Shown here piece by piece: positions 3,286 to 49,917 of a DNA stretch of 62,959 bases. Origin of the DNA: Betaproteobacteria bacterium (GTDB lineage: Bacteria > Pseudomonadota > Gammaproteobacteria > Burkholderiales > JACQAP01); the NCBI GenBank assembly GCA_025351455.1, contig JANXVW010000137.1, positions 1 through 62,959 of the forward strand, written 5' to 3'. Position 1 is the stretch's first letter. Every line of letters starts with the position of its first letter. Position numbers and translations under genes: made by a program. The notes below the pieces were generated by a model. The model did not search any database. It was not told the DNA's origin and was given only the letters and a program-made list of their open reading frames with translations.

Positions 3286-6200
3286 TCAGAGAAGAACCCT
3301 TTCGATGCCGCCGTTATTGGCTTTGGCGACATAGTCCGCCATCCAGTTCTCGCCTAGCACATGTTTGGCAATCTCCACCACGATGTAGTCCGCGGTGGTA
3401 CCGGAGTCATTGTCGTAGCGCGACAGGCCCTGCAGGCAGGACGGGCAGGAAGTGAGAATCTTCACATCGCCCTTGAATCCATCCGTGCGCAGATTGTCGG
3501 CGCCTTTGCGCATTTCCTCTTCCTTGCGGAAACGCACCTGCGTGGAAATGTCGGGTCGTGTGACGGCCAGTGTGCCGGATTCTCCACAGCAACGATCGTT
3601 CAGCGTCACTTCCGTTCCCATCAGCTTGGTGACCACCTTCAGCGGCTGATAAGTCTTCATCGGCGTGTGGCAGGGATCGTGGTACATGTAGCGCACGCCG
3701 GTCACGCCTTCGAGGCGTACGTTTTTCTCCAGCAGGTATTCATGGATGTCGAGCAGCCGGCAGCCGGGGAAAATCTTGTCGAATTCGTATTTCTGCAATT
3801 GGTCCATGCAGGTTCCGCAGGACACCACCACCGTCTTGATGTCGAGGTAGTTCAGCGTATTGGCCACACGGTGAAACAGCACGCGGTTGTCGGTGCTGAT
3901 CTTCTGTCCTTTTTCCGCTTCACCAGCGGAAGTCTGCGGATAACCGCAGCACAGGTAACCGGGCGGCAACACGGTGATGGCGCCGACTTCGTACAACATG
4001 GCCTGGGTCGCGAGTCCCACCTGGCCGAACAGGCGCTCGCTGCCACAGCCCGGAAAATAGAAAACCGCGTCCGAATCTTCGTTCACTTTTTTCGGATCGC
4101 GGATCACCGGCACCATGCGGTTGTCTTCGATATCCAGCAACGCGCGCGAGGTCTTCTTCGGCAACCCGCCCGGCATCGGCTTGTTGATGATGTGGATCAC
4201 CTGCGCCTTGATCGACGGTTTGCCGAGCGTGGCCGGCGGATGCTTCACCTGCTCCTGAATCAGGCCCAGAGATTTCCCCGCGCGATAAGCCAGGCGCTGC
4301 GCGCGGAAGCCCCACTCGATCATGATTTTGCGGGTGACCTTGATGGTGTTCGGGTCGGTCGCGTTCAGGAACAGCATGGACGCGGCGGTGCCGGGATTGA
4401 ATTTCTTCTTGTTCTGGCGGCGCAGGAAATTGCGCATCGCGATCGATACGTCGCCGAAGTCGATGTCTACCGGACAGGGATTGAGGCACTTGTGGCAGAC
4501 CGTGCAATGATCGGCGACGTCGGAAAATTCGTCGAAGTGCCTGAGCGAGACCCCTCGGCGGGTCTGCTCCTCGTATAGAAAAGCCTCGATGAGCAGCGAC
4601 GTGGCGAGGATCTTGTTGCGCGGCGAATACAGCAGGTTCGCGCGCGGCACGTGGGTCGCGCACACCGGCTTGCACTTGCCGCAACGCAGGCAATCCTTGA
4701 TCGAATCGGAAATCTCGCCGATCGCGCTCTGCTCCAGGATCAGGCTCTCCAGTTCCAGCAGGTTGAAGCTGGGCGTGTAGGCGTTGTCGAGATTGGCGCC
4801 GGCCAGCAATTTACCCCGGTTGAAGCGCCCTTCGGGGTCCACGCGCTTCTTGTACCGCGCAAAGCTGTCCATTTCCTGCGGCTCGAGGTATTCCAATTTG
4901 GTAATGCCAATGCCGTGCTCGCCGGAGATCACACCGTTCAATGCCCGCGCCAGCTTCATGATGCGCGCAACGGCGACATTGGCTTCGTGCAGCATCGCGT
5001 AGTCGTCCGAATTGACCGGAATATTGGTATGCACGTTGCCGTCCCCGGCGTGCATGTGCAACGCCACGAACAACCGGCTTTTCAGGATGCGTTTGTGGAT
5101 GGCATTGATTTCAGCGCGGATCGGATCGAACGCGCGACCGTCGAAAATCTGCATCAGCGGCACGCATACCTCTGTCTTCCAGGACACACGAAGTGCATGG
5201 CTTTGAAGAGCGTGAAAAACCGTCGAGTTCGAGGTTTCTCCCTCACCCCTCGCCCCTCGCCCCTCACCCCTCGCATCGAGATCGCCAATCGGCGCATCGA
5301 GATTTTCGAGCATCCACTGCCACCGCTCTCGCGTCGAGCGCACCAGTTCGGTCGCGTTGGCCGGCCGGCCGCCGAGCACGTCGCCCTGCGGCAGCTTTTC
5401 GGCCTCCTGGTGCACGCGCAGCTCGCCTTGCAGCAATTCCTCCATCGCATCGAGCAGGCGGATCTTGTTCTTCAACGACAGTTCAATGTTGATGCGCTCG
5501 ATGCCGTCGGAGTAATCGCCGAGGCGATCGAGCGGAATGACCACGTCTTCGTTGATCTTGAAAGCGTTGGTGTGCCTGGCGATCGCGGCCGTGCGCGAGC
5601 GGTCGAGCCAGAACTGTTTGCGCGCTTCCGCCGAAACCGCAATGAAGCCCTCGCCGCCACGGGCGTTGGCAATCCGCACCACGGCGGAGGCGGCTTCGCC
5701 GACCGCCCTGTCGTCCTCGCCGACGATATCGGCGAGCAATACCATCTTCGGCCGGCCGCCGCGCTTGGCTTTGGTGGCATAGCCGACGGCCTTCACATAG
5801 CGCTCGTCGAGGTGCTCCAGTCCGGCGAGCGTCGCGCCGCCGGGACGGCGGTCGAGGAACGCCTTGATTTCCACGATCGAGGGCACGGAGTGGGCAACCT
5901 GGCCGTAGAACTCCAGGCAGACGGTGCGCGTATGCGCCGGCATCTTGTGCAGGATGAAGCGCGCCGACGTGATGATGCCGTCGCAACCTTCCTTCTGCAC
6001 GCCGGGCAGGCCGGCGAGAAATTTATCGGTGACATCCTTACCCAGGCCTTCCTTGCGAAACTGGCGTCCGGGCACTTCGAGGATTTCGGGTTCGCCTTGC
6101 GGCATCCTGCCGTCGCGGCCGAAGCGCGTGATGCGGAAGCGCGCCAGTTCCTGATCGTGGATTTTGCCGAGGTTGTGGTCGATGCGTTCGACCAGCATCC

Positions 6201-7182
6201 ACTCCGCCTGCGGCGTCACCATTCGCCACGAGGCAAGATTGTCGATCGCCGTACCCCACAGCACCGCTTTCTTGCCACCCGCGTTCATGGCGACGTTGCC
6301 GCCGATACACGACGCATCCGCCGAAGTCGGGTCGACGGCGAATACGCGGCCGGCGGCGTCTGCCGTTTCCATGACGCGGCGGGTGACCACGCCGGCGCCG
6401 CAGTGGATAGTCGGCACCGGTTCCGGCAATCCCGGCAGGGGCGTCATTTCCACGCCGCTCAGGGTTTCCAGTTTCTCGGTGTTGATGACCGCGGACAGTT
6501 TATCGAGCGGAATCGCGCCGCCGGTGTAGCCGGTACCGCCGCCGCGCGGAATGATGGTCAGCCCGAGCTCGATGCAGGCCTGCACCATGGGCTGCACTTC
6601 TTCTTCGGTGTCGGGATAGAGCACGACGAAAGGATATTCGACGCGCCAGTCGGTCGCATCGGTTACGTGCGACACGCGCGCCAGGCCGTCGAAAGCGACG
6701 TTGTCGCGGCGGGTGATGCGCGTAAACCGGCGCAAAGCCTTGCGCCGCAGCTTCGTGGTTTCCTCGAAGTCGCGCTCGAAATCGTCCACCGCCTGGTGCG
6801 CCGAGGCGAGCAACTGGGCGACTTTGTCGGTTACGTTGCCGGCCTCTTCGCCTTCGCCACTGTCCGGCCCGGTCCGGCGCAGTTCGATTTGATGCAGGCG
6901 ATGGCGCAATGCTTCGACCAGCGCGGTGCGGCGCCGTGGATTGTCCAGCATGTCGTCCTGCAGGTAGGGGTTGCGATCGACGACCCAGATGTCGCCCAGC
7001 ACTTCATAGAGCATGCGCGCCGAACGGCCGGTGCGGCGCTGGCTGCGCAGCTCGTCGAGCCTCTGCCACATCGGCGCGCCGAGCAGGCGGATCACGATTT
7101 CGCGATCGGAGAACGACGTGTAGTTGTAGGGGATCTCGCGAAGCCGGATGCCGGTGGAAGCAAAGGGGGGAATCGGTTGCAT
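3286..7182 (-). CDS. Large DUF3683 / FAD-linked oxidase (GlcD-like) / 4Fe-4S plus CCG-domain (GlcF-like) fusion oxidoreductase
   Basis: 1298 aa. The N-terminus has [17 protein letters not shown] (DUF3683-like). A FAD-binding PCMH region follows ([14 protein letters not shown]). Two ferredoxin-type clusters are present ([14 protein letters not shown]; [14 protein letters not shown]). The C-terminus has CCG-type motifs ([15 protein letters not shown]). Confidence 0.85.
5238..5274. repeat. Heptamer array (CACCCCT/CGCCCCT) inside the oxidoreductase CDS
   Basis: ctccct CACCCCT CGCCCCT CGCCCCT CACCCCT cgc on the plus strand. It encodes [11 protein letters not shown] in the minus-strand reading frame, and the gene stays open through it. 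Confidence 0.8.
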
Positions 7183-7212
7183 CTGTTTAGGACTTCAGGA
7201 CGGGAAAAGAAT

Positions 7213-7242
7213 TCTACCGCGACGCATCATTCTCTACCGCGA
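7213..7242. promoter_or_regulatory. 10-bp direct repeat (TCTACCGCGA x2, 20-bp period) upstream of the oxidoreductase gene
   Basis: Exact TCTACCGCGA at 7213-7222 and 7233-7242, in the 63-bp spacer between the yqaA stop and the oxidoreductase start. Any function is purely conjectural. Confidence 0.2.
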
Positions 7243-7245
7243 AGT

Positions 7246-7644
7246 TCACGCTACCAGCCGACCGATAAGATAGTAGCGACCGAATTTACCCAGTGCCATG
7301 AACAGCACCGACCCCCAGATACTGAGCCTCAACCACCCGGCAGCAACGCACAACGCGTCGCCGATGATCGGCACCCAGGACAGCAGCAGGACCGGGGCGC
7401 CCCAGCGCCGCGCCCATTCCAGCGCGCGCCCGCCAAGTTTGCGATCGGGCACAAGGCGGCCCACCAGATAGGAAGTCGAACCGCCGAGCGTATTGCCCAG
7501 TGTCGCTACGGCAAGCGCCGGCCAAAGACCGGCCGTGCCGCTGGAAAGCACGCCAGCGAAAACGAACTCGGAACCACCGGGAAGCAGCGTCGCCGCCAGA
7601 AAACTGCTCAGGAACAGCGCGCCAAGGCCGACGGATTCGTTCAA
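7246..7644 (-). CDS. YqaA-family (DedA/SNARE-associated-like) inner membrane protein
   Basis: 132 aa and hydrophobic: LFLSSFLAATLLPGGSEFVFAG...WGAPVLLLSWVPIIGDALCVAAGWLRL. Confidence 0.75.
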   Translation of the reverse strand: MNESVGLGALFLSSFLAATLLPGGSEFVFAGVLSSGTAGLWPALAVATLGNTLGGSTSYLVGRLVPDRKLGGRALEWARRWGAPVLLLSWVPIIGDALCVAAGWLRLSIWGSVLFMALGKFGRYYLIGRLVA

Positions 7645-8131
7645 TTGGACGGTGGAACCATCGGTTACGACGGAAGGGTGACGCGGCTAGGAGGAAGGCT
7701 TGATCCTCAAACTCACGCCTCTTGTTCAATCACTTAGCACCAACCAAAGCTACCGCCGTGAAGCACTTCAAGCGACACTAAGACGCATAATATCGAAATC
7801 CCGCATTTCGCGTGCAGCGGCGACTTGGTCACGAAACAATGCGATCGTTATACTTCAGAATCCTTGAACGTTAACGGCGTTCGAAGTTAAAGTGTTCAGA
7901 AACGGACGGATGAGGATTTGGATTTTTTCCGTAGCGCACTTATGACTGGGGTGATCGCCGCGTCCGCTTACTCTATGTGTGTGGAAGAGCCGCTCGCTAT
8001 ACGTTCGTCACAATCTCTATTCGGTCAGCGCCTGCTAGATTCCTAATACCGCTCCGCGCGCTCACGCTAACCGAGCGAAGTTCCGCGGCAATAGGCAACT
8101 TTCCCTTGTTAAAGTGCCGAGCAGGTCCAAT

Positions 8132-8140
8132 TGATATAAT
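8132..8140 (+). promoter_or_regulatory. Candidate extended -10 promoter (TGATATAAT) for the island cassette
   Basis: An exact TGnTATAAT lies 35 nt upstream of the ATG at 8176, in an A/T-rich leader. No good -35 was found. Confidence 0.35.
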
Positions 8141-8175
8141 CGCAGAATCGAGCCTGAACTGACGGCTCTGGTCTA

Positions 8176-8961
8176 ATGCGGTGGCAAACAGTGCATTACC
8201 AAAAAAACTACCTCTCCAACGTTGTGCTTCGCCTCGATTTTGAGCCAGTCCAAGCGCTGCGTCAGATCACCAAGGTAGACACTAAACCTGAATTTTCAGC
8301 CCGTGTTGCGGATATCTATCCGTTCGTCGTAGGCCAGCCGACAGCCAACCTTAGCGTTGTGATTGGTCCCACCGGAAGCGGCATCAATCAGCAAATAACT
8401 GGCGTCCAATGGAATCATCGGACCGAAGAGAACGGAACACGGGCAATTGCACTCGCATCTGATTTTCTGAGTGTCGAATACGGAAAAGAAGACTACGACC
8501 ATTTCCCGCCATTCCGAGCGGAGGTTGAGACGGCATTAAAAGCCCTTGAGGAACTGTACGACATTACCCACTTCACTAGGATTGGGCTACGCTATATCAA
8601 CGAGATTAGTATTCCGGAAGGTAATGCATTGGACTGGCAAGGAATAATTTCCGCGCCCCTCATAGCGGCAGTTATGGCAGGTAAAGAAGCCGACGCGAGT
8701 GTCGTTCGGTCAATGCATCAACTGCATGAGAGACGAGACGACTGCGACATGATCTTCAACTACGGCCTCCACAATCCAGATTTTCCGAATTCCCTTGTTC
8801 GGAGAGCCTTCATCTTAGATTACGATTGCTCAAAGTCTGCGGTAGAAGCGGGACAGGCATTACAAACAATTAACGGACTGAATAAATTTTGTGAAGGCAT
8901 GTTCGAACGCAGCATCGACGGCGAATTGCGAAACAAACTTGGAGTAATACCCAATGGCTAA
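8176..8961 (+). CDS. TIGR04255-like uncharacterised protein (island gene A)
   Basis: 261 aa. The N-terminal Y.KNYL..VVLRLDF and the central RIGLRYIN motif match my memory of the TIGR04255 family. No catalytic motif was recognised. The SD is weak. Confidence 0.7.
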   Translation: MRWQTVHYQKNYLSNVVLRLDFEPVQALRQITKVDTKPEFSARVADIYPFVVGQPTANLSVVIGPTGSGINQQITGVQWNHRTEENGTRAIALASDFLSVEYGKEDYDHFPPFRAEVETALKALEELYDITHFTRIGLRYINEISIPEGNALDWQGIISAPLIAAVMAGKEADASVVRSMHQLHERRDDCDMIFNYGLHNPDFPNSLVRRAFILDYDCSKSAVEAGQALQTINGLNKFCEGMFERSIDGELRNKLGVIPNG

Positions 8962-9190
8962 TAAAATGATAATCGCGACAACGGCAAATTCGACATCGGC
9001 GATTGCAACCCGTGACAAAGCCTACTTCACGCAATCGCCAACAAGGGAAACCGCAAATCCCCGCACTCCCACAGTTCTAGCCGCGACCAAAACTACGGTG
9101 GCCACGACGAAAACGATTGAAGCGGCTGACCCTTACCGTCAAAGCGCCCACAAGGTCGTTGTGAAACGGTATGCCGTTAATCGCGGGTAG
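8954..9190 (+). CDS. Small Thr/Ala-rich hypothetical protein (island gene B)
   Basis: 78 aa. Its ATG overlaps the gene A stop (ATGGCTAA). GGAG at 8941-8944 lies 9 nt upstream of the ATG. The 3' end overlaps gene C by 20 nt. The sequence is low-complexity, so it is uncertain whether this region is coding at all. Confidence 0.35.
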   Translation: MANKMIIATTANSTSAIATRDKAYFTQSPTRETANPRTPTVLAATKTTVATTKTIEAADPYRQSAHKVVVKRYAVNRG

Positions 9191-9758
9191 CCCCCAGTAC
9201 TTCAAATCCACCGCCAAGCGGTACGAACAAGGAGACATCCTCCGGGACGTGACGCTCATACAGTGGGCAGACGTGGAGGATGAGCGCGCCATTAATGTTG
9301 TCGAGCGTACGCTGCAGTATTGCGTTGTCGTTTCGCAGGAGTGCGACCTTGAACATGATTTCAACAACCGAGAAAAGCAAGACAAGAAGTCGGAAGACAA
9401 ATACCTCCAATCACTTCTGATCTGTCCAGCATATCAAGCCGAATCATTTCGAAAGGGCGAACATCTCAAGCAGTTGGAATTGAGAATGGAGGTCATCAAT
9501 AGCGACAACTGGAAGCGGCTGATTCAGAACAATCAGGCCCGCTATCACTACTTAGGTAGGCACGAGGATTTTCAGATCCCTGAACTGATTATTGATTTCA
9601 AGCACTACATGACAGTTCCGCGAGACATCTTATACCGTGAGAAATTTGAATCGTGCTACCTCGCCACGATCGAAATTTTGTTTCGCGATAGTCTCTCCGG
9701 ACGCTTTGCACAGTATCTTAGTCGCATTGGATTGCCTGACGAACTGACGTCTGTGTAG
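9171..9758 (+). CDS. Hypothetical protein with MazF/PemK-like motif order (island gene C)
   Basis: 195 aa. An in-frame TGA at 9162-9164 fixes the start. The motifs GDILRDV, CVVVSQECD, LLICPAY and LIIDFKHYMTVPRDIL occur in the same order as the PemK/MazF hallmarks (GDI.., RP.lVlS.d, v.v.PiTs, vl.dQirtiDk.rL), with longer linkers. This is pattern recognition only. Confidence 0.6.
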   Translation: MPLIAGSPQYFKSTAKRYEQGDILRDVTLIQWADVEDERAINVVERTLQYCVVVSQECDLEHDFNNREKQDKKSEDKYLQSLLICPAYQAESFRKGEHLKQLELRMEVINSDNWKRLIQNNQARYHYLGRHEDFQIPELIIDFKHYMTVPRDILYREKFESCYLATIEILFRDSLSGRFAQYLSRIGLPDELTSV

Positions 9759-9853
9759 TACGTATGCCACAAGACGGGCACTCACTAGCGGGAAGAACGA
9801 CCGATGCCCTCTGCAAACCAGACGTTCACGTGAGGGACGTGCGCCCAGCCACA

Positions 9854-11302
9854 CTAGTTTTGCATCTTTAAGATTTCCGCGCGGTATTCCAAAGCTTTAC
9901 CAAGTCGCGGATCATCATCTGGAAAAAGGGCCTTCATTCCGGAGCTCCTGCCATTTTCCACACCCCTCATGAAATCTCTATCGGCCACAATTTCGTTGCA
10001 ACATCGCAATATCTTCGGTCCGTCTACACCAAATAACTTCATGTACGCAGCTTCCGCTGCTTCTAGTGCGTCGTCCGATGTTGCAATCCCGCGACCTTGA
10101 ATAACCGAGTCCACTAAGCCGAACATCAGGCCCATGCTGTAGCGATCTTCCGATATGAGCCGTTTGGCTTTGTGCTCGTCCACCCCAGCATTTTCTATCT
10201 GAACGCGGAAAATCTGGAAGACAGCCTCCGCAGCTGATCCCGGAGTGTTGCCAATAACGCTTCGTATAAGAGGAAACGTAGAAACGTCAGTGCCTGACCC
10301 GGACAGTTTCGTTTCCGTCAATGCTTCCCTTTCCGCAGAAATAAGTCGCTCTGCTCGCTGCCTGATATAGAGCACCTTAGTCTGCTTGTCATCTCCGCCG
10401 CATTCCGCAAATACTCGAGTCCACAGTCCCTTGTCTGCGGTACCGTCTTCCAACTCTTTGGCTATGTCCGCATAGATACGTTCTTCGTCGACAGAAGCAT
10501 TTGTCGGAGATACAGCATGGTTTTTAGGAGGCGCTTTGTCGGAGGAATAGGATTCCATCGAAACCGCCGACATGGATGAGTTCGACGAACGAGTCGGCGT
10601 ACCCTCGGCCGGACGATCAAGCAACCGCCGCGTCAAATTACCGACCACGAGAAACCAAAGGCCCGCCACAAGGAGAGACATCGCGCATGCGGCAATCGAT
10701 CCGTAGTGCATGCCGATACTCTGATCCAGCGTGATATCGCCCCGGGAAGCACTCCTCAAGGCTTGTTTGACGATGGACCACATGAACATGTGAGCAATAA
10801 TCCAAAAAATCCACCATACAAGAAGAATTCCCGAGGAGGAAGACTTGCTCCATTCCTCCCCCCCTCCATGGTCAACAGCCCCGACTTTGTAGATTTCGTT
10901 GAGTACTTGGTATGGCTTGTATAGGTTCACTAAGGGAACTATCCAGCCCCACGCTTTCCATCCTTCGTGAACGAAACCAGTTGCCTTAAATCTTTCCTTC
11001 GCATACTCGTAGCATGCAGCCAGCCAACTAAAGAGTGCCAATCCGACACCGATAGCCGTTAGGATCAGGACATTCGCAAAGGAGTCCCAAAACTTAAGTC
11101 TGCTAACTGCAGATTCGTAGTTATCGATTTCTAAAACTCCTGAGCGGATGTCATTGAGAGCATTCACCGCCCACAAGTCAGTGCCCGCCACCAACACTGT
11201 GACGCCAATGTCGATTCCGAGCGCTATGAAAAGCAAGTCCTTGGCATTCACAAGTTTTTCCTGGGTCACTTGTTCGTCCCATGCACGCATGTCCAATGTC
11301 AT
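9854..11302 (-). CDS. DUF4328-type multi-pass membrane protein with an uncharacterised cytoplasmic C-terminal half (island gene D)
   Basis: 482 aa. There is a strong SD (AGGAG, 7-nt spacing). The N-terminal half has several TM segments and GWKAWGWIVPLVNLYKPYQVLNEIYK (DUF4328-like). A Ser-rich linker follows, then the recurrent motif DKGLWTRVFAECGGDDKQTKVLYIRQRAERL, then about 150 aa of unknown fold. Confidence 0.65.
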   Translation of the reverse strand: MTLDMRAWDEQVTQEKLVNAKDLLFIALGIDIGVTVLVAGTDLWAVNALNDIRSGVLEIDNYESAVSRLKFWDSFANVLILTAIGVGLALFSWLAACYEYAKERFKATGFVHEGWKAWGWIVPLVNLYKPYQVLNEIYKVGAVDHGGGEEWSKSSSSGILLVWWIFWIIAHMFMWSIVKQALRSASRGDITLDQSIGMHYGSIAACAMSLLVAGLWFLVVGNLTRRLLDRPAEGTPTRSSNSSMSAVSMESYSSDKAPPKNHAVSPTNASVDEERIYADIAKELEDGTADKGLWTRVFAECGGDDKQTKVLYIRQRAERLISAEREALTETKLSGSGTDVSTFPLIRSVIGNTPGSAAEAVFQIFRVQIENAGVDEHKAKRLISEDRYSMGLMFGLVDSVIQGRGIATSDDALEAAEAAYMKLFGVDGPKILRCCNEIVADRDFMRGVENGRSSGMKALFPDDDPRLGKALEYRAEILKMQN

Positions 11303-11589
11303 TTGATTCTCCTAATGCCCGCAACCTTTAGTCGGTCAGTTTGCCACCTACGCTCTTGGGAGAAAACGCGCGAGAGATTCTACTTCTAGGAAGTCTCTGG
11401 GATTCTTCACTTCGTTTTGGAGACGGTAATGTTCAAGTGAGCGGGCTGGCGCCCGACAACGCCGCGATCGGGTGTCTGTTGGCACAGAGCAAGGATTTAG
11501 CCACTGCAGGATTTGAGTAACTTAGCTCTCCCTACGATTGAGGAGTTAGCGCGGCTTCGAATTTTGCGAAGTGGAAGGGTCACACGAAT

Positions 11590-12830
11590 CTGCCCTGTGC
11601 GGCGCGTGAGCCGGCTTAATCGGGGCGGTTTCAATGACCAAGTGCAAAAAGCGAAGCATGATGCTTCTTGAAATCGAAAGCGTCCGGGGTGAACAAGTCA
11701 GCAGGGCAGCGTAAGCCCATCGACTTGCGTGGCCTGGTGTTCAGTTTCCAGGCAATGGTATCGAGCTGCGCCTGGGTGAAGCCGCTCAAGTCGCTGCCCT
11801 TGGGCAGGTACTGTCGCAACAATCCGTTAGTGTTCTCGTTGATTCCGCGCTGCCATGGACTGTGCGGATCGGCGAAGTACACCTTCACCCCGGTGGCCTC
11901 GGTCAGGCGTTGATGCTCCGTCACCTCCCGGCCTTGATCATAAGTCATCGACAGTCGCATTTGCGCCTCGATGCGATTGAGCACGTGACTGAAGCCGCTC
12001 AGCGCCGATTGCGCACTGGCGTCCCTCATCCTGGAGAGCACGGTGAACAAGGTGGTGCGCTCCACCAGCGTACCGACAGCCGAGCGATTGTGGGCCCCCT
12101 TGATCAGATCGCCCTCCCAGTGCCCGGGTATCAGCCGCTCTTCAACTTCAGGCGGCCGGTCATGAATGCTGACCATGTCAGGAATGCGTCCGCGCCGGTC
12201 TTCGCCCCGTGCGCGGGGACGGCGCTTGGCATGGCCGAATCGCAACCAGCCAATGATTTCCGTGCGCAGCTCGCCACGCGGCATGGCGTAGATCGCGGTG
12301 TAGATGGTTTCGTGAGAAACCCGCAACGAAGGCGTTTCGGAATGCACAAGCGCCAGTGTGCCGGCAATCTGCTCGGGCGAGTAGCCCGCCTTGAGGTATC
12401 GGATGACACGACCCCACAACGCGCCGCCAGGGCGCAACCGGCGCTCAACGTGCGGCGTGAGCGTGCAGGCTCGGGCGCGTTGGTGGGCGACTTCGGCTCG
12501 GTAGCCGCCCGCCACCGGGGGTCGTCCTGGACCGCGATCCTCCTTCGGGCGAACCCAGCCGTTTCGACGCAGTTCGCGAGAAAGCGTCGATGCCGACCGA
12601 TTCAACCCCAAGGCAATCGCCGCCGGTTTGACTCCCATCTCAAGTTGCGTCTGGATCATCGTTCGCTCTTCAATACCCACCGACCGTAACGTTTTCCCAT
12701 GCAACATTCTCTCCCACAAATGTTGCACTTGGTTTTTGAGCGCGCCCGGCTTTAACGGCGACATGCACGCACGAAATTCATTGATAACCTTTTAACTACT
12801 ACCTCACATGCGCCGAGGCCATCACATACG
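11590..12830 (-). mobile_element. IS30-family insertion sequence (ends approximate)
   Basis: A GC-rich block containing an IS30-type transposase sits inside A/T-richer island DNA. I could not define the terminal inverted repeats by eye. Confidence 0.55.
11631..12764 (-). CDS. IS30 family transposase
   Basis: N-terminal HTH (IALGLNRSASTLSRELRRN) and a DDE region (HWEGDLI...TYDQGRE...ADPHSPWQRGINENTNGLLRQYLPKG). An alternative start is the ATG at 12707 (MLHGKT...). Confidence 0.9.
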   Translation of the reverse strand: MSPLKPGALKNQVQHLWERMLHGKTLRSVGIEERTMIQTQLEMGVKPAAIALGLNRSASTLSRELRRNGWVRPKEDRGPGRPPVAGGYRAEVAHQRARACTLTPHVERRLRPGGALWGRVIRYLKAGYSPEQIAGTLALVHSETPSLRVSHETIYTAIYAMPRGELRTEIIGWLRFGHAKRRPRARGEDRRGRIPDMVSIHDRPPEVEERLIPGHWEGDLIKGAHNRSAVGTLVERTTLFTVLSRMRDASAQSALSGFSHVLNRIEAQMRLSMTYDQGREVTEHQRLTEATGVKVYFADPHSPWQRGINENTNGLLRQYLPKGSDLSGFTQAQLDTIAWKLNTRPRKSMGLRCPADLFTPDAFDFKKHHASLFALGH

Positions 12831-13174
12831 TAAGGGATCACATTCGCAGTCATGTTTCTCAATCGGCAGACGATCCTAGCCTCATTAAGCAAGTGTTCAG
12901 ATTTTTCACGCAACGTTTTATCGAGGGTTCGTAACGTGCCATTCTCCACCCCGTCGTCAGGACGGCCGTAAGTGTAGGCTCGAGAACCTCGCCGGGGGTT
13001 CTGTAAAGTTCGAGGAGGTCTTGCTGAATGGGCGGCGAACTACGTGGTCAAGTTTCACTTCTTTACCCACATCGAATCCTGCGGGTGCTGTGTAGCCCCG
13101 ATGAGTAGTAGACCAGAACGAGAACTTGGTTGAATCGAGCTAATTCTTTTGTGTAGAAAGCACTTAGAGGGAAT

Positions 13175-13251
13175 TGGCGCGCCCGAGACGATTCGAACGT
13201 CCGACCACTGCCTTCGGAGGGCAGTACTCTATCCAGCTGAGCTACGGGCGC
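13175..13251 (-). tRNA. tRNA-Arg (anticodon CCG)
   Basis: Folded by hand: GCGCCCGTAGCTCAGCTGGATAGAGTACTGCCCTCCGAAGGCAGTGGTCGGACGTTCGAATCGTCTCGGGCGCGCCA. It has a 7-bp acceptor stem, anticodon loop CTCCGAA, T-loop TTCGAAT and an encoded CCA. Confidence 0.9.
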
Positions 13252-13366
13252 ATCGGGTTCGAAGTTTACGGCCAAAGGGCATTCGAGTCCATTGCCCCGC
13301 TTTTTAGGGGTGGTCGAATAGCCTATAATTTGCGCCTTCCAAAGGTTTAACCGCAAAGGATTTTTC

Positions 13367-13912
13367 ATGTCCGAAGTGCATGTCGAGGACCACTCCTCGC
13401 TGATCAAGACCCCCCAGCAACTGATCGTGGTCGTCGTGCTGGCGTTTGTCATTCCCGTCGTGGGAATCGTCATGATCGCCAGCGCCATTACCGGCGGGCT
13501 GAAGACCGAAGCCGCCGGCGATGCCGGGGCCGTTGCGGAACGCCTCAAGCCGGTCGGGACCGTGGTAATCGGTGACGTCCCGGCGCCAGCCGCGGGAGCG
13601 CAACCCGCAGCCGCGGCAAGCGGGGTGAAGTCCTCGAGCGGCGAACCGATCAAGACAGCCGCGGCGGGCGGTCCGGGCGCCGGGAAAAAACTCTATGACA
13701 CGGTCTGCATGGCCTGTCATGCCGCGGGTCTCGCGGGTGCGCCGAAGACCGGCGACAAAGCAGCCTGGAAACCGCGCATCGCCACCGGCAAGGAAGCGCT
13801 CTACAACAGCGCGCTGCACGGCAAGAACGCCATGCCGCCGAAGGGTGGTTCATCGGCTGCGGATGCCGACGTCAAGGCTGCGGTGGACTACCTGGTGGGG
13901 CTCGCAAAGTGA
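13367..13912 (+). CDS. Membrane-anchored cytochrome c5-type (class I) cytochrome c
   Basis: An N-terminal TM segment, an Ala/Pro-rich linker, the haem motif CMACH, and KNAMPPKGG (Met ligand region). Confidence 0.8.
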   Translation: MSEVHVEDHSSLIKTPQQLIVVVVLAFVIPVVGIVMIASAITGGLKTEAAGDAGAVAERLKPVGTVVIGDVPAPAAGAQPAAAASGVKSSSGEPIKTAAAGGPGAGKKLYDTVCMACHAAGLAGAPKTGDKAAWKPRIATGKEALYNSALHGKNAMPPKGGSSAADADVKAAVDYLVGLAK

Positions 13913-13930
13913 GCTGCTGCGCTCGCCGTG

Positions 13931-14025
13931 AATGGTGATTGGTAATTGGTGATTGAGAGGCGCGGCGATGCCGCGCCTTTTTATTTCCTGATTACCATTC
14001 ACGAATCACCAATTACCAATCACTG
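13931..14025. repeat. Heptamer-array inverted element (TGGTGAT/TGGTAAT family) enclosing a terminator
   Basis: GTGATTGGTAATTGGTGATT at 13935-13954 is the perfect reverse complement of 14004-14023. There is also an outer pair, GAATGGT / ACCATTC. Confidence 0.85.
13958..13985 (+). terminator. Rho-independent terminator downstream of the cytochrome c gene
   Basis: AGGCGCGGCGATGCCGCGCCT stem-loop followed by TTTTTATTT. Confidence 0.75.
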
Positions 14026-47919: not shown

Positions 47920-49917
47920 TTATTTGCCGAAACGATACTGCACCGAGACAAGGAAATTACGCTCGGGGGACGGATAGGCGATGAACGTGTTGGTGGGGAA
48001 GGTAATCGCCAGTGCATAGGTGGAATACTTTTCGTCGAACAGGTTTCTTACCGACGCGCCGAAAGTCCAGGCGTCGATCGTGTGGAAAACGCCCAGGTCT
48101 GCCGTCCAATAGGACGGCATTTCCCTTCCAAAGGTATTCAATTCATCGCCGTCGTAGAGCTGGCTTCCGACATAGTTTGCGGCGGCATTCAACCGCGTGC
48201 GTTCCCATATGGACCAGTCGATCCCGACGTTGGCCATGTGGCGCGGGACTAAGGGAATGCGATTGCCGGATACATCTATTCCTCCGAGGGAGGCCGAACG
48301 GAATTTCGCCTCGGTGTACGTGTAATTCGCGAACAGCAGTGCACTTATGGTCAGCGTCCATTTGCCCTCCAGTGTCACGCCCGACCGTTTGGTCGGCGGC
48401 AGATTGACGTTTGCAAACGCGTTGGAATCGAAATGGATCTCGTTTTTGAGGTCGGAACGATAGACGGCTATCCGGTATCGGCCCGGGCCAAATTGCGTCT
48501 CGAGGCCGAGTTCCGCGTCGTGCGAAGTCTGCGGCTCGATGAATGTCACCGTCGGTGGAATAAAAAAGGCACCAAGGCCGGGAGAATATATTTCGTCCAG
48601 GGTCGCAATGCGGAAACTGTATCCGTATTTTCCGTAGATTGCCGCGCTGCCATTGAACTGGTGGCGTGCGCCGATTTCATAAGCGGAAAGATTGCGCGTC
48701 TGTTCTCCCGACGCGCCACCCGCGGGAACGGTGGAGTCGCTTGCATCGAACTCGATTCTTTGCAATCGCCCGCCGAGCGACATCGTTGTTCCTGGCAGCA
48801 GGGTAGAGACATTTTGGAGATACACCGCGGAATTTTTTTGCTTCGCGGTAGCAGAGGCGGGATTGTTGCGCACCGAGGTGTAATCCCAATCTTCCCAATC
48901 CGCTCCGAAAACAAGGCTGTTGTTCACGCCGAATGCAGCGTAGGGAAGCTTGGCTCTCGGCGAAAAACTCCATGTCTCCACTTTAGTGTTGCCGTCCAGG
49001 GTCAATCCCGAGAACGCTGCATGAAAGTCGTTTTTCTTTTCGCGATAACCCAGGTCTGCGATCAGCTCGGCATCGCCCAGCCTGAATTTTCCGGAAAGAT
49101 TGGCGAAACCGCCACTGCGATTGGAAAAGTCCTCGGGCGTTCTCGTGCCGCGGCGATCGGTATCCAATTCCGCCTCGGTGCGGGTACCGGGCAAACGCAG
49201 GTCCTGCTTGTCGTAGCCGAGCTTGAGGTTGAGAGTGTGATTGGGATCGAAATTGCGCAGGTCGGCGACAAAGTTATCCTGCACGACACGATTATTTTCC
49301 CGGAAATTATCCGAAGTGTAGTGACCCCCATTCAATCCAAGTCCGACCGTCTCGCTTGCGATCTGTCCGCCCACTCGGTAGTCCCGGGTGTTGTAGCTGC
49401 CGCCGCCGGCGTAGGTGTCGAATGATTTGCTCGCGGAAACAGGGCCTTTGGTGATGACATTGATCACGCCGCCGGTCGCACCCCCGCCATAGAGGACAGC
49501 GCCGCTGCCGCGAACTATTTCGATGCGGTCGATGGATTCGAGGGGGATGGAGGACCAGCGTGCGGTAGTAAGTTCGTACTCGCTCAAGCGCCGGCCATCT
49601 AGGAGGACCAGCGTGTTCTGATCGCCGGTAACGCCAAATCCCCGCAAATCCACCTGCATGTCCGGGCTGCCGCTGTTATCGCGCACGAACACACCGGGCT
49701 GGCGGGAAAGCAACCTGGGCAGCGAAGTTTCCCCGCTATTGCGAATTTCTTCGCCGGTGATAACGGTCACGCCGATTGGCTGGTCGCCGGGCTTTTCCTC
49801 GAAACGCGAAGCCGTAACCACGACTTCATCCGCAACCAGATCCGGATTTTTTTGCGCATGGGCGCTGATGCTGGCCAGACAACCGGCCAGCAGGACGTAC
49901 ATCTGATTTTTGTTCAT
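47920..49917 (-). CDS. TonB-dependent outer-membrane receptor under cobalamin-riboswitch control (BtuB-like)
   Basis: A signal peptide from the ATG at 49917 (SD GGGGAG), TonB box-like DEVVVTASR, plug motifs, and a terminal ...VQYRFGK. A cobalamin riboswitch lies in the leader. Confidence 0.88.
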   Translation of the reverse strand: MNKNQMYVLLAGCLASISAHAQKNPDLVADEVVVTASRFEEKPGDQPIGVTVITGEEIRNSGETSLPRLLSRQPGVFVRDNSGSPDMQVDLRGFGVTGDQNTLVLLDGRRLSEYELTTARWSSIPLESIDRIEIVRGSGAVLYGGGATGGVINVITKGPVSASKSFDTYAGGGSYNTRDYRVGGQIASETVGLGLNGGHYTSDNFRENNRVVQDNFVADLRNFDPNHTLNLKLGYDKQDLRLPGTRTEAELDTDRRGTRTPEDFSNRSGGFANLSGKFRLGDAELIADLGYREKKNDFHAAFSGLTLDGNTKVETWSFSPRAKLPYAAFGVNNSLVFGADWEDWDYTSVRNNPASATAKQKNSAVYLQNVSTLLPGTTMSLGGRLQRIEFDASDSTVPAGGASGEQTRNLSAYEIGARHQFNGSAAIYGKYGYSFRIATLDEIYSPGLGAFFIPPTVTFIEPQTSHDAELGLETQFGPGRYRIAVYRSDLKNEIHFDSNAFANVNLPPTKRSGVTLEGKWTLTISALLFANYTYTEAKFRSASLGGIDVSGNRIPLVPRHMANVGIDWSIWERTRLNAAANYVGSQLYDGDELNTFGREMPSYWTADLGVFHTIDAWTFGASVRNLFDEKYSTYALAITFPTNTFIAYPSPERNFLVSVQYRFGK

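Follow-up and report, generated by a model that had tools for sequence, protein, structure and literature searches.

Tripartite toxin-antitoxin (TA) systems occur on mobile elements and in defence contexts, and in those represented by TAC HigBA-SecB, with its chaperone, and by CmdTAC, the three genes are co-transcribed. In the MazEF, PemIK, and Kis-Kid modules, which are mobile and patchily distributed, a small gene lies directly upstream of, and overlaps, the gene for a toxin of ~110 amino acids (aa), and the type III systems ToxIN and CptIN have RNA repeats in place of a protein-coding small gene. In type II Gabija, a split MazF-like domain with a helical insertion forms GajC, the required effector (PMC13069673). 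Here we describe a three-gene cassette that bears comparison with each of these systems. The cassette lies at positions 8176-9758, on the plus strand, of a 62,959-nt stretch of DNA from an uncultured betaproteobacterium of Burkholderiales type (GenBank JANXVW010000137.1; the whole stretch is referred to as the window), and is an overlapping operon for a TIGR04255-family protein, a variable 78-aa protein, and, last, a protein of 195 aa from an unnamed family. It is part of a block of ~5.5 kb that sits between the start of a yqaA-like gene and a tRNA-Arg(CCG) gene. The cassette is a mobile, tightly linked three-gene operon, and the block around it is foreign, mosaic, and tRNA-adjacent. As an explanation of the whole we lean, if only slightly, towards a mosaic acquired islet carrying a tripartite cassette that resembles a TA or abortive-infection system.

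The three cassette genes recur together well beyond the window. By tblastn, 30 of the 34 loci that were fetched have a TIGR04255 homologue at a distance of 200-300 bp on the upstream side of the gene for the 195-aa homologue, and two of the other four have no upstream DNA. The TIGR04255 hidden Markov model (HMM) confirms the first gene of the pair in seven other loci, with scores of 82-122 bits. Wherever genes were called and upstream DNA is present, an overlapping open reading frame (ORF) of 53-78 aa lies between the outer two genes (locus L093 excepted), and across loci the members of the trio measure 233-261, 53-78, and 179-217 aa. That the cassette genes form one unit is hardly in doubt.

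The middle ORF overlaps both of its neighbours and is thus a real gene, although simple ORF lists would pass it over. When it is compared with its counterpart in L081, a metagenomic contig that carries the same cassette, codon positions 1 and 2 are 0.968 identical and position 3 is 0.899 identical, as expected of coding sequence. Conservation is confined to a C-terminal Y...K-V-V-x-K/R-x-Y segment, and the protein has no Pfam match and no AbrB or RHH DNA-binding domain. Some members of the 195-aa family are extended at the N-terminus, and were considered as fusions to the small protein; the extensions resemble miscalled starts, and the idea was rejected. A candidate promoter for the cassette is the extended -10-like box listed in Table 1. 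At its position L081 has TGGTATAAT and L083 has TATAAT, and the box is inside the part of the window that is conserved with L081. A consensus promoter scan skipped this box because its -35 element is poor, and the promoter and terminator scans as a whole found no more sites than in shuffled sequence. The convergent intergenic region downstream of the cassette (9755-9860) has no unusual structure (z=0.76).

The clearest evidence for mobility comes from L081, which shares with the window a downstream core of tRNA-Arg(CCG), cytochrome c5, apaH, an acyltransferase, and PfkB. In L081 the cassette lies 72 bp from the tRNA 3' end, accompanied by neither the DUF4328 gene nor the IS30 insertion sequence (IS) that share the block with it in the window. 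The cassette DNA (window 8106-9777) is 93.1% identical between the two, whereas identity is down to 78.0% in the 4 kb of core alongside, and third-codon identity is 0.84-0.90 in the cassette genes as against 0.58-0.60 in apaH and the acyltransferase gene. The L081 cassette is likewise low in GC (0.497 vs 0.608). Because the identity of the cassette is far above that of the core, the cassette has been transferred horizontally, and recently, between two long-diverged lineages.

The patchy distribution of the cassette elsewhere also tracks horizontal transfer. Two contigs from Sulfuriflexus metagenome-assembled genomes (MAGs; L084:1516-4906 and L085:118-3910) share an identical cassette, after which comes an 89-aa integrase fragment common to both, and differ in their left flanks: one has a full P4-type (tyrosine) integrase near a Metallophos gene, and the other an RHS/HNH toxin and DUF4262. 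On a plasmid of Methylocystis iwaonis the cassette is beside a recombinase gene and a gene of an abortive-infection family, at one further locus it adjoins a type III restriction-modification system, and it is found on a contig whose record name is 'uncultured archaeon'. Seven IMG/VR viral contigs carry it. In one of these, a Mu-like phage contig, the TIGR04255/195-aa pair (L101:4974-6561) is placed as a moron between the genes for the large terminase (3433-4701) and the Mu portal (6807-7949), and the small-protein region is in frame with the 195-aa homologue as one ORF of 243 aa, either a true fusion or an artefact of longest-ORF reporting. The GenBank phage collection gave no match for the 195-aa protein. 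In further metagenomic or viral loci (L118:9004-9760, L119:2495-3251, and L096:4650-4723), the cassette is no more than ~0.3-0.5 kb from tRNA-Met (divergent pair) or tRNA-Gln, which suggests that it often rides tRNA-targeting elements and is not specific to tRNA-Arg.

Searches of Pfam, NCBIfam, and PADLOC gave no match for the 195-aa protein, and an unannotated PHROG (phrog_4575, E=2.5e-4) gave a weak one. Its family is nonetheless large, with at least 281 homologues in a collection clustered at 90% identity; among clusters at 50% identity, an exhaustive HMM search matched 2,113 at E<=1e-3, 1,089 at 1e-10, and 313 at 1e-30. An AlphaFold2 model built with 69 homologues has a mean pLDDT of 91.5, and when it was compared with the PDB by Foldseek, ranks 1-49 were all MazF, PemK, Kid, and EndoA toxins (E 1.1e-3 to 3.9e-2, probability 0.90-1.00, target-normalised TM 0.51-0.68, identity 4-11%). 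A match to MazF had been foreseen from the pattern QGDI...(~30 residues)...VVVSQxCD, as the MazF motifs at beta1 and beta3 look similar. The 195-aa protein probably adopts a MazF-type barrel, and its link to MazF is one of predicted fold only. The invariant residues of the family are R17, Q20, G21, Q56, C58, D59, L60, D63, D76, K77, L83, A87, G96, H98, R124, D142, F143, K144, R172, S176, R178, R185, and L188, and they suggest a real active or binding site, which need not be that of MazF.

On the reading that we favour, the 195-aa protein would be a MazF/Kid-type barrel with helical insertions, an effector that arrests growth and is probably a ribonuclease. Its neutraliser would be the small overlapping protein, with the conserved C-terminal strand docking as MazE does with MazF, and the TIGR04255 protein would be a third component, whether a sensor, regulator, stabiliser, or enzyme. 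The cassette is a self-contained, translationally coupled operon that travels whole between bacteria, archaea, plasmids, and phages, and it would act as an addiction or abortive-infection element, here in a block in which no integrase or att site survives. Toxicity, neutralisation, and any role in phage defence are properties that we infer, and the chances that the cassette has a TA or defence-type function seem to us evenly balanced.

The predicted fold, the small gene directly upstream of and overlapping the putative toxin gene, and the mobile, patchily distributed module are all features shared with MazEF, PemIK, and Kis-Kid. Unlike those modules, the cassette encodes a putative toxin of 195 aa with helical insertions and other invariant residues, for which sequence and profile homology to MazF was not found; a small protein that has no AbrB or RHH domain; and a larger TIGR04255 protein that is almost always attached. 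The tripartite TA systems offer a parallel for the third gene, as the short, variable middle protein of the cassette could need a stabilising partner, but the TIGR04255 protein gives no SecB-like fold in Foldseek, and both the gene order and the toxin class differ. CptN of the type III systems is the first non-MazF fold match of the 195-aa model, at rank 50. The cassette has, however, a protein-coding small gene where those systems have RNA repeats: no type III antitoxin RNA was found, with TRF reporting no tandem repeats in 7600-13300 and Rfam, at a permissive threshold over 7000-14000, the tRNA alone. A likeness to the predicted architecture is offered by GajC of type II Gabija, by description also a highly diverged MazF-like barrel broken by helices and an anti-phage effector (PMC13069673), although the partner of GajC is the UvrD-like helicase GajB, and the cassette has neither helicase nor ATPase.

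Several results weigh against a TA or defence role. Even at E<=10, the Pfam PemK model (PF02452) matched none of the 69 family members, for which Pfam otherwise returned scattered noise, and hhalign of the 195-aa family against a MazF/Kid alignment gave a probability of 0.09%. The reference in that comparison consisted of E. coli MazF, B. subtilis EndoA, S. aureus MazF, and Kid, whose sequences were validated against PDB entries at E 1e-43 to 1e-52. The Foldseek E-values reach only ~1e-3, with rmsd of 5-9 Å, and sequence-profile searches of the PDB with the 195-aa and TIGR04255 families found nothing. Furthermore, the conserved C58, D59, D63, D76, K77, H98, H126, D142, and K144 do not obviously match the catalytic Arg and Thr/Ser pair of MazF, and the chemistry may therefore differ or be absent. 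The small protein is barely conserved and has no DNA-binding domain, the TIGR04255 protein has no interpretable fold match in the PDB or BFVD, literature searches for TIGR04255 and CHP04255 returned no papers from the library searched, and in several loci the cassette is surrounded by housekeeping genes and has neither mobile nor defence genes nearby. PADLOC-DB v2.0.0 matched no system, the best and only match being to PDC-S39 (E=0.047 over 80 residues). For the PF02452 family, then, the profile match is lacking and the SH3-like barrel fold of the CcdB/MazF superfamily is present by prediction only, and because no membership of PemK/MazF, of the type III systems, or of any PADLOC system was found, the module is described here as working like a MazEF-type module, not as being one.

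Much of this would fit a housekeeping or regulatory operon, concerned with RNA processing or with the handling of small molecules or nucleotides, in which the TIGR04255 protein is the enzyme and the barrel a scaffold that binds nucleic acid or a ligand. The invariant Arg, His, Asp, and Glu residues of TIGR04255 would suit an enzyme or a ligand-binding pocket, the invariant residues of the 195-aa protein appear to differ from the catalytic ones of MazF, to which it has no detectable sequence homology, some copies lie among ribosomal-protein and metabolic genes, and no defence database gave a match. Such an operon is harder to square with the patchy spread of the cassette, with copies on a plasmid, on viral contigs, and near integrases, or with an identity to L081 of 93% in the cassette as against 78% in the core; moreover, selfish modules of two or three genes typically show translational coupling and a small middle gene that evolves fast. 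We regard a housekeeping role as rather unlikely.

An initial annotation of the window, made from its sequence alone, had expected TA or anti-phage cargo in the block and had named PADLOC as a check. The PADLOC result goes against it, and the expectation draws indirect support from a MazF-fold protein in a conserved, mobile three-gene operon. The same annotation listed four ORFs of the block as having no assignable function. Two of these fall in named families (TIGR04255 and DUF4328), ORFs of 61 and 65 aa have no support as genes, and the overlapping 78-aa gene belongs to the true set.

The TIGR04255 protein of the window matches its family model at 111.6 bits (cutoff 30) over model positions 2-252 of 252. 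Its AlphaFold2 model (pLDDT 92.0) consists of two similar halves, each a beta-sheet plus a long helix, and Arg, His, Asp, and Glu make up most of the 21 residues that are invariant in the family. Two kinds of fold match were set aside as unusable: the AdoMetDC proenzyme, which reached a probability of 0.9 at a TM of 0.24, and scattered, weak matches to TBP- and CYTH-like folds. Four contexts outside the cassette were examined (L102-L105), on the plasmids pCB3060_2, pTB1, and p716811-VIM, from Rhizobium, Thermus, and P. putida, and on Methanobacteriales virus vir080. In all of these TIGR04255 heads a small operon, and the genes that follow it there show no relation to the 195-aa family (hhalign probability <=2.2%) and have no Pfam domain. 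Among the genes nearby are a multiubiquitin/ThiF/DUF6527 set, VapBC, Cas6, and a RES toxin.

These contexts hint that the downstream genes are interchangeable and that TIGR04255 is their conserved partner. They raise the possibility that TIGR04255 is the key component, a conserved sensor or a promiscuous antitoxin-like partner, with the MazF-fold protein one of several effectors that can be exchanged. Its position as the 5' gene of operons on three plasmids and a virus, next to unrelated downstream genes and in such company, speaks for this idea; the contexts number only four and the partners are uncharacterised, and we hold it as doubtful. It also overlaps the tripartite TA or abortive-infection reading and does not exclude it. 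The two could be combined in a new and widespread tripartite TA or abortive-infection system, in which the effector is a MazF-type barrel, diverged so far that its sequence no longer reveals it and equipped with a new active site, and TIGR04255 is a promiscuous sensor or neutraliser that pairs with unrelated effectors, a proposal we offer as speculative.

The block that contains the cassette differs sharply in composition from the rest of the window. In a sliding profile GC falls from 0.62-0.66 to 0.47-0.54 across ~7.6-11.7 kb, the fall beginning at 7.5-8.0 kb, then stands at 0.62-0.65 over 11.75-12.75 kb. A second dip follows at 12.75-13.25 kb, and from the tRNA onward the values are those of the host. 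Without the IS, the GC of the block is 0.505 (4300 nt) as against 0.609 for the rest of the window, a difference of more than 5 standard deviations (sd), where the background is 218 windows of 1.5 kb outside the block (mean GC 0.609, sd 0.020, minimum 0.561), and the block is the sole stretch below 0.55 in the 63 kb. Third-position GC (GC3) is 0.51-0.60 in the cassette and DUF4328 genes, 0.73-0.80 in the flanking genes, and 0.71 in the IS30 transposase gene. Because both GC and GC3 contrast with the rest of the window, the block is real, far beyond chance. The initial annotation had described an A/T-richer accessory block between yqaA and tRNA-Arg(CCG) with a shift in codon usage, to be checked by sliding-window GC and codon analysis, and all of this is borne out; its estimate of GC in the mid-40s against ~60% was right as to the contrast and too low as to the value, as the block is at ~50% and its IS30 element is host-like. 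The only other 1-kb stretch of the window with GC below 0.56 is 48001-49000 (0.555), in or near a 672-aa ORF on the minus strand.

Table 1. Position of the variable block, its compositional segments, and the features in and beside it, in window coordinates
Feature	Position	Strand	Basis or remarks
Variable block	7645-13166	none	Homology breaks, low GC, none of its genes in relatives
Junction segment	7740-8105		GC 0.516
Cassette segment	8106-9777		GC 0.493
DUF4328 segment	9778-11617		GC 0.516
IS30 segment	11618-12752		GC 0.612
Remnant segment	12753-13174		GC 0.493
yqaA-like VTT-domain membrane protein (left core flank)	7246-7644	-	Pfam VTT_dom E=1.4e-8
Left junction, low GC, no supported gene	7645-8105	none	Unlike the sequence left of the cassette in L081
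Extended -10-like box, TGATATAAT	8132-8140	+	~35 nt upstream of cassette gene 1; read from sequence
Gene 1, TIGR04255-family protein, 261 aa	8176-8961	+	NCBIfam TIGR04255 E=5.3e-32
Gene 2, small variable protein, 78 aa	8954-9190	+	8-nt overlap with gene 1, 20-nt overlap with gene 3
Gene 3, 195-aa protein of predicted MazF fold, unnamed family	9171-9758	+	Putative effector/toxin; conservation and predicted fold
DUF4328 membrane protein, 482 aa, with C-terminal extension	9854-11302	-	Pfam DUF4328 E=5.4e-19
IS30-family insertion sequence	11609-12761 (ends approximate)	-	NF033563 E=3.9e-86; transposase ORF 11631-12764
Low-GC non-coding remnant between IS30 and tRNA	12762-13174	none	GC 0.493; ~410 bp
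tRNA-Arg(CCG)	13175-13251	-	ARAGORN; Rfam tRNA 62.5 bits; 3' end toward block

The edges of the block are set by alignment. DNA homology with L001, a Burkholderiales MAG that is the closest relative (86% aa identity in the flanking 1298-aa FAD/Fe-S gene), stops at 7643, at the start of yqaA, and restarts at 13167, and homology with the L081 core restarts at 13166; these points define the variable block of Table 1, whose right edge is thus 8-9 bp outside the tRNA 3' end. The initial annotation had the block ending exactly at that 3' end, which is correct for the abutment and not for the exact position. At the left, alignment with L081 starts only at window 8106. The yqaA-like protein has 74% aa identity to its L001 counterpart and a GC3 of 0.73, and the tRNA, the single one of the window, is syntenic in L001, L002, L005, and L081.

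Relatives of the locus were sampled as 80 loci from GTDB representative genomes, fetched with the N-terminal 600 aa of the 1298-aa protein, and tblastn with every island protein gave zero matches among them. Thus, far from all close relatives sharing these genes with no compositional contrast, none of the 80 loci has any of them, and horizontal acquisition of the block is nearly certain. The site was nevertheless not a simple empty one, as the initial annotation would have had it when it proposed an insertion between yqaA and the tRNA and an alignment to find the empty site. The gene order in L001 is apaH, cytochrome c5, tRNA-Arg(CCG), a 212-aa gene, yqaA, and the 1298-aa gene, with a uniform GC of 0.59-0.69. 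The 212-aa gene (L001:8773-9411) encodes a PmtA-like SAM methyltransferase, is of native GC, and is apparently operonic with yqaA. This PmtA-like phospholipid N-methyltransferase gene is found nowhere in the 63-kb window, nor at the corresponding place in the other loci; therefore either the island displaced it or L001 acquired it. Relative to L001, the content of the window, which is unique among these relatives, is a replacement and not a pure insertion. In L002 and L005 the tRNA and flanks are kept with 4.6-6.3 kb in between, which in L002, the one profiled for GC, is of native composition. The interval between yqaA and the tRNA is thus a variable spot.

The signature of integration is incomplete. 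No tyrosine or serine recombinase gene was found in the block, where the sole recombinase is the DDE transposase of IS30, and a six-frame check of the remnants was also empty. A second copy of the tRNA 3' end was not found in the block at <=3 mismatches, blastn-short gave chance 7-10-mers, and a repeat finder gave none. As there is neither an integrase nor a direct repeat of the tRNA 3' end, the classical integration that had been proposed at this site is not demonstrable. Of the hallmarks of a genomic island, the block has deviant composition and codon usage, absence from relatives, and abutment on a tRNA 3' end, and it lacks an integrase and attL/attR direct repeats. Like tRNA islands with P4-type integrases, it combines low GC and a position at a tRNA 3' end with absence from relatives, accessory cargo, and an IS. 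It differs from those islands in lacking an integrase, an att repeat, and excision functions, in being mosaic and 5.5 kb long, and in that the closest relative shows a different native gene and not an empty site. Judged as an island, the block is small, degenerate, and in no way unusual.

The block is mosaic, made up of at least three pieces that differ in their history, namely the cassette, the DUF4328 segment, and the IS30 element of host GC. The DUF4328 gene is convergent to the cassette and lies between it and the tRNA. It is unlinked to the cassette in any other locus and absent from L081, and for these reasons it is considered separate cargo. Homologues share the first ~65% of the protein and have variable C-termini, such as ankyrin or Sel1 repeats; those at L106:2063-3608 and L107:2132-3628 are in accessory surroundings with SMODS, DUF6602, TIR-domain, and BrnT/CopG genes. 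Residues ~275-325 (12-27% of the protein) have 41-72% identity with otherwise unrelated membrane proteins (DUF2569, DUF805, and ankyrin proteins), and this shared segment looks like a small mobile domain or motif.

The IS30 copy that the initial annotation had named is confirmed. Its transposase is intact, matches NF033563 over positions 1-267 of 267, and has HTH_38 and rve domains. Imperfect 30-nt inverted repeats, 77% complementary, are at 11618-11647 and 12723-12752, and the element is present in one copy in the window. It inserted after the block was acquired; when it was removed in silico at a grid of alternative junctions, no convincing interrupted ORF was recovered. A same-strain contig from Logan (L092), assembled independently from other runs and covering 5 samples, repeats the junction between the cassette and the DUF4328 gene with 100% protein identity, and breaks ~45 bp into IS30. 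This contig argues against chimerism, and suggests that IS30 is multicopy.

That last result bears on a different account of the low-GC block, in which it is an ancestral region that evolves fast or is poorly constrained, or else a chimera of metagenome assembly. The contig is probably of MAG type, and no integrase or att site marks an insertion, as this account would have it. It has, in addition to the Logan contig, to contend with L081, a second organism with the same cassette beside the same tRNA, and with three cassette genes that are intact, conserved, and far above the core in identity. It is largely refuted, and we consider it extremely improbable.

The remainder of the block contributes little coding sequence. 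The remnant near the tRNA and the flanks of the IS have no recognisable gene, and stops interrupt all six frames of the remnant. The ORFs of 61 aa (7977-8162) and 65 aa (12752-12949) have no family match in Pfam, PADLOC, and NCBIfam scans and, as said above, no gene support. Outside the block, the flanks, at 61% GC, contain many overlapping ORFs that are the usual artefact of high GC and not genes, among them a 1028-aa ORF (4651-7737, plus strand) antisense to the 1298-aa FAD/Fe-S gene.

The cargo of the cassette is uncatalogued, in that the 195-aa family has thousands of members and no Pfam entry, name, or literature was found for it. TIGR04255 is a curated family of no known function, and is now linked with the 195-aa family in one mobile operon. 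Together, the operon link and the predicted MazF-type fold turn two blank families into a testable hypothesis, with predictions for toxicity, neutralisation, RNA cleavage, and phage protection. If it is true that TIGR04255 serves several types of effector, it would be a new modular component for TA and defence biology, in both Bacteria and Archaea.

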